Shown here: positions 61,041-62,041 of the stretch, piece after piece
Layout of the letters: every line of letters starts with the position of its first letter
How positions within the stretch are numbered: the stretch's first letter is position 1
Assembly (NCBI RefSeq): GCF_003334815.1
Contig: NZ_QOWO01000007.1
Length of the DNA: 64,000 bases
Source: Escherichia coli
Lineage (GTDB): Bacteria; Pseudomonadota; Gammaproteobacteria; Enterobacterales; Enterobacteriaceae
Direction: 5' to 3' (one strand)
The notes under the pieces: generated by a model
Seen by the model: the letters and a program-made list of their open reading frames with translations, nothing else
What the model was told of the DNA's origin: nothing
Database searches by the model: none
Position numbers and translations under genes: made by a program

Positions 61041-62041
61041 TCAGAGTTTAGCGAATTTTTCGAGGGTGCGAATAAGCTGTGTGACGAAGCCATATTCGTT
61101 ATCGTACCAGGCGACCGTTTTCACCAGTTGTAAATCGCCCACGGCGGTAATTTCCGTTTGCGTGGCATCAAACACCGAACCGAAATGGCTGCCAATGATA
61201 TCGGAAGAGACTATTTCTTCATCGGTATAACCAAATGACTCGTTATTGGTGGTTGCTTGTTTAAGTGCGTTATTCACCTCTTCGGCAGTCACTTTTTTCC
61301 GAGAATCGATACCAGTTCAGTGACCGAACCTGTTTTCACCGGCACGCGTTGCGCATGACCTTTCAGTTTGCCGCTCAGTTCCGGGATCACCAGACCAATG
61401 GCTTTTGCCGCCCCCGTAGTGTGGGGAATGATATTTTCTGCCGCTGCGCGTGAAGCACGTAAATCTTTACCACGCGGGCCATCCACCAGTGACTGGGTGC
61501 CAGTATAGGCATGAATGGTCGTCATCGTGCCGACTTCTATCCCGAAACTGTCATGCAAGGCTTTGGCCATCGGCGCAAGACAGTTAGTGGTGCATGACGC
61601 CACGGAAACAATGGTGTCGTTGCCATCCAGAGTGTCGTCATTGACGTTATAAACGATAGTTTTCATTTCACCGGCAGGGGCGGAAATCAACACCTTCTTC
61701 GCACCAGCATCAAGATGCGCCTGCGATTTCTCGGCGGAGGTATAAAAGCCAGTACATTCGACAATGATTTCTGCACCTTTCGCTTTCCACGGAATATTTT
61801 TAGCCTCTTTTTCGGCGTAAACCGCGATACTTTTCCCATCAACGATAAGTGAATCTTCCGTAAAATCAACGCTCCAGGGGAATGGTCCGTAGTTTGAATC
61901 ATGTTTCAGCAGGTAGGCGAGAATTTATGGGGAAGTGAGATCATTAATAGCGACAACGTCTATGTTGCTTTTGACTTCAAGTAATCGACCCAACACCAGT
62001 CGACCGATACGACCAAAACCGTTAATACCAACTTTACTCAT
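61041..62041 (-). pseudogene. gapC: glyceraldehyde-3-phosphate dehydrogenase C pseudogene
   Basis: Full-length GAPDH homology from [14 protein letters not shown] with in-frame TAA at codon 39 (plus 61925-61927) and a 1-nt frame break in an A-run (plus T6 at 61293-61298) between GKK and VTAEEV. Confidence 0.8.

Follow-up and report, generated by a model that had tools for sequence, protein, structure and literature searches.

The disrupted gapC gene in a 64,000-nucleotide stretch of Escherichia coli DNA is the K-12-type pseudogene allele

When a gene for glyceraldehyde-3-phosphate dehydrogenase (GAPDH) carries both a nonsense codon and a frameshift, the question arises of whether the gene is dead, still read by some form of recoding, or wrongly assembled, and, if it is dead, whether it was lost in nature or in the laboratory. 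Such a gene occupies the minus strand at positions 61041–62041 of the window, the 64,000-nucleotide stretch of E. coli DNA analyzed here. Direct reading and translation identify it as the gapC pseudogene, a type I GAPDH gene of 1001 nt. We assign a probability of approximately 0.97 to the interpretation that it is a K-12-type allele that has lost its function, gapC being the second GAPDH gene of E. coli and a typical bacterial one of type I. The following sections describe the locus, the distribution of its lesions among complete genomes, the alternatives, and the relationship to the intact enzyme.

Structure of the gapC locus

Alignment of the window gapC with that of K-12 MG1655 revealed 0 differences in 1001 nt (100% identity), and the copy in the human stool isolate 720632 likewise shows 0 differences in 1001 nt. 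In the MG1655 reference sequence (NC_000913.3), gapC (b4493) is annotated as a pseudogene at 1489713–1490713, which corresponds to window positions 61041–62041, between aldA and cybB. Identical copies are labeled by PGAP as 'type I glyceraldehyde-3-phosphate dehydrogenase; frameshifted; internal stop'. An earlier reading made from the letters of the window (hereafter, the sequence-only reading) had recognized a GAPDH homologue one base short of an intact gene and had connected it with the known K-12 pseudogene. Both points are borne out by the 1002-nt length of the intact alleles and by the identity with b4493. The position, the TAA at codon 39, the one-base loss from a run of seven adenines (A7) and the identity with the reference were all found in the window, four of the four features that define the K-12-type pseudogene. 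The window gapC is this well-known, ordinary allele.

The start codon ATG is present at 62041–62039. An AGGAG sequence (62048–62052, minus strand), which can be read directly 6 nt before the ATG, resembles a Shine-Dalgarno element and presumably functions as one. A simple promoter scan found no gapC promoter that exceeded the expectation from shuffled sequence. For comparison, we used six uninterrupted gapC alleles of 1002 nt (333 codons and a stop) from BL21, an O145 strain, GTEN_23, an O18 (B2) strain, M172-1, and GPEC1337. Three changes distinguish the window lineage from these alleles: R18G, the conversion of Lys39 to an ochre codon, and a one-base shortening of the A7 run. At codon 18 (61988–61990, minus strand), the window has GGT (Gly) where six of six intact alleles have CGT (Arg). 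This R18G substitution results from a C-to-G change at nt 52 (window 61990), lies in the NAD-binding N-terminus, and was absent from the sequence-only reading. Codon 39 (61925–61927) is TAA instead of AAA (Lys) owing to an A-to-T change at nt 115, and the translation there reads S-P-stop. Finally, a 1-nt deletion after codon 248 has left six adenines (A6; T6 on the plus strand) at 61293–61298, where the intact alleles carry A7, or AAAGAAA in B2-type strains. The nonsense codon and the missing A had both been read from the letters beforehand, and the alignments to K-12 gapC and to the six intact natural alleles agree with this reading; among the differences found, only these two are relevant to the frame.

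The TAA leaves an N-terminal open reading frame of 38 amino acids (61925–62041). Past the TAA, the same frame continues as GAPDH sequence to GGA AAA AAG TGA at 61300–61289, the TGA (61289–61291) being met in the original frame right after the A6 deletion. The codons of the catalytic residues Cys150 (TGC in the SCTTNC motif; 61592–61594) and His177 (CAT; 61511–61513) are both intact, and both are located downstream of the TAA. The C-terminal 83 codons (V251–L333, plus the stop; 61041–61292) appear in the list of open reading frames as a separate piece, no longer in frame with the N-terminal codons. They read VTAEEV...KFAKL in the −1 frame, end with TGA at 61043–61041, and match positions 257–330 of the GAPDH model TIGR01534.

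According to the list of open reading frames, gapC is flanked by aldA (59560–60999, plus strand), which is convergent with it, and by cybB (from 62194 or 62230, plus strand), which is divergent. A 9-bp G+C-rich hairpin with a GGCGGAGG..CCTCCGCC core (61010–61033) is located between the stops of the convergent gapC and aldA genes. Direct folding of this hairpin gave −18.5 kcal/mol (z = −4.1). It was not listed by the simple promoter/terminator scan, but it is probably a terminator shared by the two genes. On the other side, in the gapC–cybB intergenic region, the window has G at 62088, 47 nt upstream of the gapC ATG, where MG1655 has A; the G is also found in natural isolates such as 720632. 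In BL21, an IS1A element lies directly upstream of the intact gapC, at the place where other strains have cybB.

Collinearity with MG1655 extends from 9143 to 63472, with approximately 99.9% identity and scattered SNPs, but the window is not MG1655 itself. The start of collinearity at 9143 coincides with the Rac boundary near ttcC. Megablast gave no match between window positions 1–9142 and the end of the MG1655 Rac prophage (stfR, tfaR, pinR, ynaE), and this segment likely represents a different prophage or insert. The window copy of ydbA (40230–41847) is without the IS2D and IS30C elements that interrupt the MG1655 copy; it has approximately 294 extra bases in internal repeats and dense substitutions at 40746–40906, and may be uninterrupted. 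At the other end, collinearity stops where an IS150 element (IS3 family) begins (63473–64000). The insertion starts inside the position of sokB (63447–63503, MG1655-equivalent), upstream of hokB/mokB and before trg. At least 80% of positions 63000–64000 is covered in 570 complete genomes, including that of K-12 HMS174, in which the junction is slightly different.

Distribution of the lesions among E. coli genomes

To place the allele in the species, we used a set of 5426 complete E. coli genomes, in 5418 of which the gapC locus was found. Alleles were counted with exact 30-mers (megablast, 28-base word), which give a match only when the focal site agrees exactly. The codon-39 TAA is present in 1153 genomes, and the commonest local haplotype with AAA at this codon is present in 3389. 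G at nt 52 (R18G) was counted in 1150 genomes and C in 4063. The A6 run occurs in 1050 genomes and AAAGAAA in 309; most genomes have A7 in frame, a frequency that is read only from the locus lengths of evenly spaced sample genomes and from what the A6 count leaves over.

The order of the lesions can be deduced from an intermediate allele. HS-01, a human stool isolate, has R18G and the TAA together with A7, and its gapC is annotated with 'internal stop' only. Because this strain combines the nonsense codon and R18G with an unbroken run, the stop is older than the frameshift. Conversely, three of three sampled A6 carriers, which have large genomes and come from different hosts, also have the TAA. 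These carriers and the counts (1050 versus 1153) suggest that A6 is nested within the TAA carriers. R18G and the nonsense codon are co-extensive and appear to have arisen on one branch, with the loss of the A occurring later in approximately 91% of the carriers. Further changes are seen in individual members of the clade. In EC05, ISKpn26 (IS5-like) is inserted after approximately 240 nt of gapC, a further step of decay. ES6 has extra frameshifts in gapC and in the neighboring aldA, which may reflect assembly quality.

The carriers were isolated on several continents, from human stool and urine, pigs, cattle, chickens, dogs, and house flies, and also from frog-farm sediment, marine sediment, and river water. 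Because they span so many hosts and environments, the lesions are the product of neither assembly error nor laboratory passage. Together, the three lesions mark a natural clade of E. coli, with K-12 among its members, that accounts for approximately 1150 of the 5426 genomes (~21%).

Among the alternatives to this interpretation, the least improbable is that the lesions were gathered in K-12 over decades of culture. It agrees with passages in PMC2949598 and PMC1796617, citing Espinosa-Urgel and Kolter 1998, in which environmental isolates are described as having an intact gapC and laboratory strains a truncated one; PMC2949598 is also the source of the statement that laboratory strains gather mutations in this gene. 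For Hidalgo 1996 and for Espinosa-Urgel and Kolter 1998, the literature search found only papers citing them. However, the same lesions are found in isolates from humans, animals, sediment, and water on several continents, the intermediate allele comes from a human stool isolate, and the window does not come from a laboratory K-12 genome. We therefore regard an origin by laboratory domestication as very improbable.

Recoding, assembly error, and phase variation

By direct reading, the A deletion has made an A_AAA_AAG heptamer (61292–61298, minus strand). A_AAA_AAG is the same slippery heptamer as that of the programmed −1 frameshift site of dnaX. In the A6 allele, this X_XXY_YYZ sequence is present in the register of the incoming ribosome, with the stop codon next to it. 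A −1 slip at this site leads to GTG ACT GCC..., which is the wild-type frame, and gives G-K-K-V-T-A-E-E-V. Considered alone, the A6 frameshift would be leaky through the heptamer. In a more far-reaching interpretation, readthrough of the TAA combined with the −1 shift would supply full-length, active GapC at a low and regulated level. The ribosome-binding site, which is kept, would suit such a recoded gene, as would the promoter, which is also kept according to a passage in PMC2949598.

Several features speak against this interpretation. The TAA is located 210 codons upstream of the heptamer, shuts the upstream frame, and has no apparent readthrough signal. No significant stimulatory structure follows the heptamer (the 86 nt from the site fold with −12.7 kcal/mol, z = −0.82), and the sequence upstream of it shows no Shine-Dalgarno-like stimulator. 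The heptamer and the two frames are not conserved, as the relatives have either the in-frame A7 or AAAGAAA. Moreover, the frameshift is younger than the stop, and R18G replaces a residue that six of six intact alleles share. The gapC A6 allele shares the heptamer, its register, and the immediate stop with the dnaX-type site, but it is without the downstream stem-loop, the upstream Shine-Dalgarno-like element, and the conservation, and it lies behind a nonsense codon. With the TAA upstream and neither a stimulatory structure nor conservation at the site, functional recoding at A_AAA_AAG was rejected, and we consider it even less probable than laboratory domestication.

The sequence-only reading had counted the gapC deletion as the second break of frame at a homopolymer in the window. 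The other break that was meant is most likely that in ynbC (50469–52223, plus strand). Compared with MG1655, this gene has a T7-to-T6 change at approximately 50498 and a 2-nt deletion at approximately 51584 (CAATC versus CAAAATC), and it is split into three open reading frames (50469–50798, 50525–51652, and 51696–52223). The 30-mer with T6 was found in 4 of the 5426 complete genomes, and that with the 2-nt deletion in 0 of 5426. The two breaks are unrelated: that of gapC is old and clade-wide, whereas that of ynbC is nearly private. The ynbC deletions represent either private mutations or assembly errors.

We give next to no credence to the possibility that the true gapC sequence has AAA at codon 39 and A7, so that the gene is intact and both breaks are errors of sequencing or assembly. 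Long-read assemblies often contain errors in homopolymer length, and the two nearly private deletions in ynbC could be such errors. However, the TAA in gapC is a substitution and not a length error, and more than 1000 complete genomes, each assembled independently, have TAA, R18G, and A6 in combination. The assembly-error explanation was rejected on the basis of the 1153 genomes with the TAA 30-mer and the 1050 with the A6 30-mer, both including the MG1655 reference. Equally far-fetched is a phase-variable contingency locus in which gapC is switched off by A6 and on by A7: the break does lie in a homopolymer of which both lengths occur in the species, but a run of seven bases is on the short side for efficient switching, the sampled records show A6 only together with the upstream TAA so that switching back restores nothing, and the states track sequence similarity (the approximately 1000 best-matching genomes) instead of being mixed across lineages. 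Nothing contradicts the pseudogene status of gapC.

Consequences of the loss and comparison with related genes

The non-functional allele can be accounted for by the following series of events. An ancestor of the natural clade to which K-12 belongs gained R18G and the ochre codon at Lys39. Translation then ends after 38 residues, far upstream of Cys150 and His177; because translation from the kept start stops at this point, no catalytic domain can be made. Later, a subclade that appears to comprise approximately 91% of the carriers lost one A from the A7 run at codons 248–250, likely by replication slippage in a gene no longer under constraint. The locus would thus yield no GAPDH and, at most, a transcript and a 38-residue peptide, probably without residual function.

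A gapC transcript probably exists, because promoter activity is reported to persist and the gapC–cybB region has a sigma-S ChIP-seq peak (PMC4447067). The former point is found in passages of PMC2949598 and PMC1796617 that cite Espinosa-Urgel and Kolter 1998, according to which the promoter in laboratory strains still responds to the environment. It is more speculative that the kept promoter, ribosome-binding site, and 38-codon reading frame serve a residual role as RNA or peptide. Engineering papers routinely use gapC as a pseudogene integration site.

Comparisons among the intact alleles gave 12–35 synonymous and 0–5 non-synonymous codon differences. Because the synonymous differences far outnumber the non-synonymous ones, the codon comparison indicates that intact gapC is under strong purifying selection. 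We consider it very likely that gapC was lost stepwise in nature and that the loss has become fixed in a large clade of commensal and clinical strains (~21%) and is not a laboratory artefact of K-12, while the gene is under strong purifying selection in all other lineages. If this is true, a single successful lineage would be the only one able to do without the role proposed for gapC outside the host, in cold fresh water; a role in aquatic survival was reported by Espinosa-Urgel and Kolter. By itself, the gapC pseudogene is of little importance, being a textbook case of K-12. The modest value added here is the third lesion (R18G) and the population context, namely the use of the lesions as a clade marker, the order of events provided by the intermediate allele, and the assignment of the intact allele to a crystallized, active enzyme known as 'EcGAPDH1'. 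This context corrects the impression that gapC broke through laboratory culture. Intact and dead gapC in otherwise similar strains also offer a clean natural contrast for studying the purpose of a second GAPDH.

The intact counterpart of the window gene is well represented by BL21. Its GapC scores 447.3 bits on TIGR01534, above the cut-off of 367.2. On the GapA model PRK15425, it scores 300.6 bits (cut-off, 662), and on the Epd models TIGR01532 and PRK13535 it scores 276.6 and 280.2 bits, respectively (cut-offs, 530–539; 530.55 for TIGR01532). Because these scores are below the cut-offs of both types of model, GapC is a distinct paralogue and not a copy of GapA or Epd. GapA and Epd/GapB (erythrose-4-phosphate dehydrogenase) resemble GapC in having a Rossmann N-domain and a catalytic Cys-His pair and in belonging to the type I GAPDH fold family. 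The two open pieces of the window gene score 35.7 bits (residues 1–38) and 78.3 bits (C-terminal 83 amino acids) on TIGR01534, neither of which reaches the cut-off. Since only the intact BL21 allele passes, the window holds a relic and not an expressible member of TIGR01534.

BL21 GapC (WP_000048667.1) is 100% identical to residues 20–352 of PDB 7C5F. The enzyme of this entry is described as highly active and as needing C150 and H177 (PMC8615399); that paper names neither gapC nor the strain, and its tie to gapC is the sequence identity with the BL21 protein. 'EcGAPDH1' of the PDB 7C5F series, as present in BL21 and most natural isolates, is accordingly the product of the same locus and forms an active, crystallized tetramer, whereas no GAPDH activity is expected from the window allele. 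The BL21 allele has CGT at codon 18, AAA at codon 39, A7, and a length of 1002 nt, and the translation of the repaired window gene differs from its product only at R18G and K39stop. MG1655 gapC (b4493; formerly gapC_1/gapC_2, b1417/b1416) has the position, length, sequence, TAA, and A6 of the window allele; the gene is the same in both genomes, and the differences between them lie outside it, in the one SNP 47 nt upstream of the ATG and in the surrounding genome.
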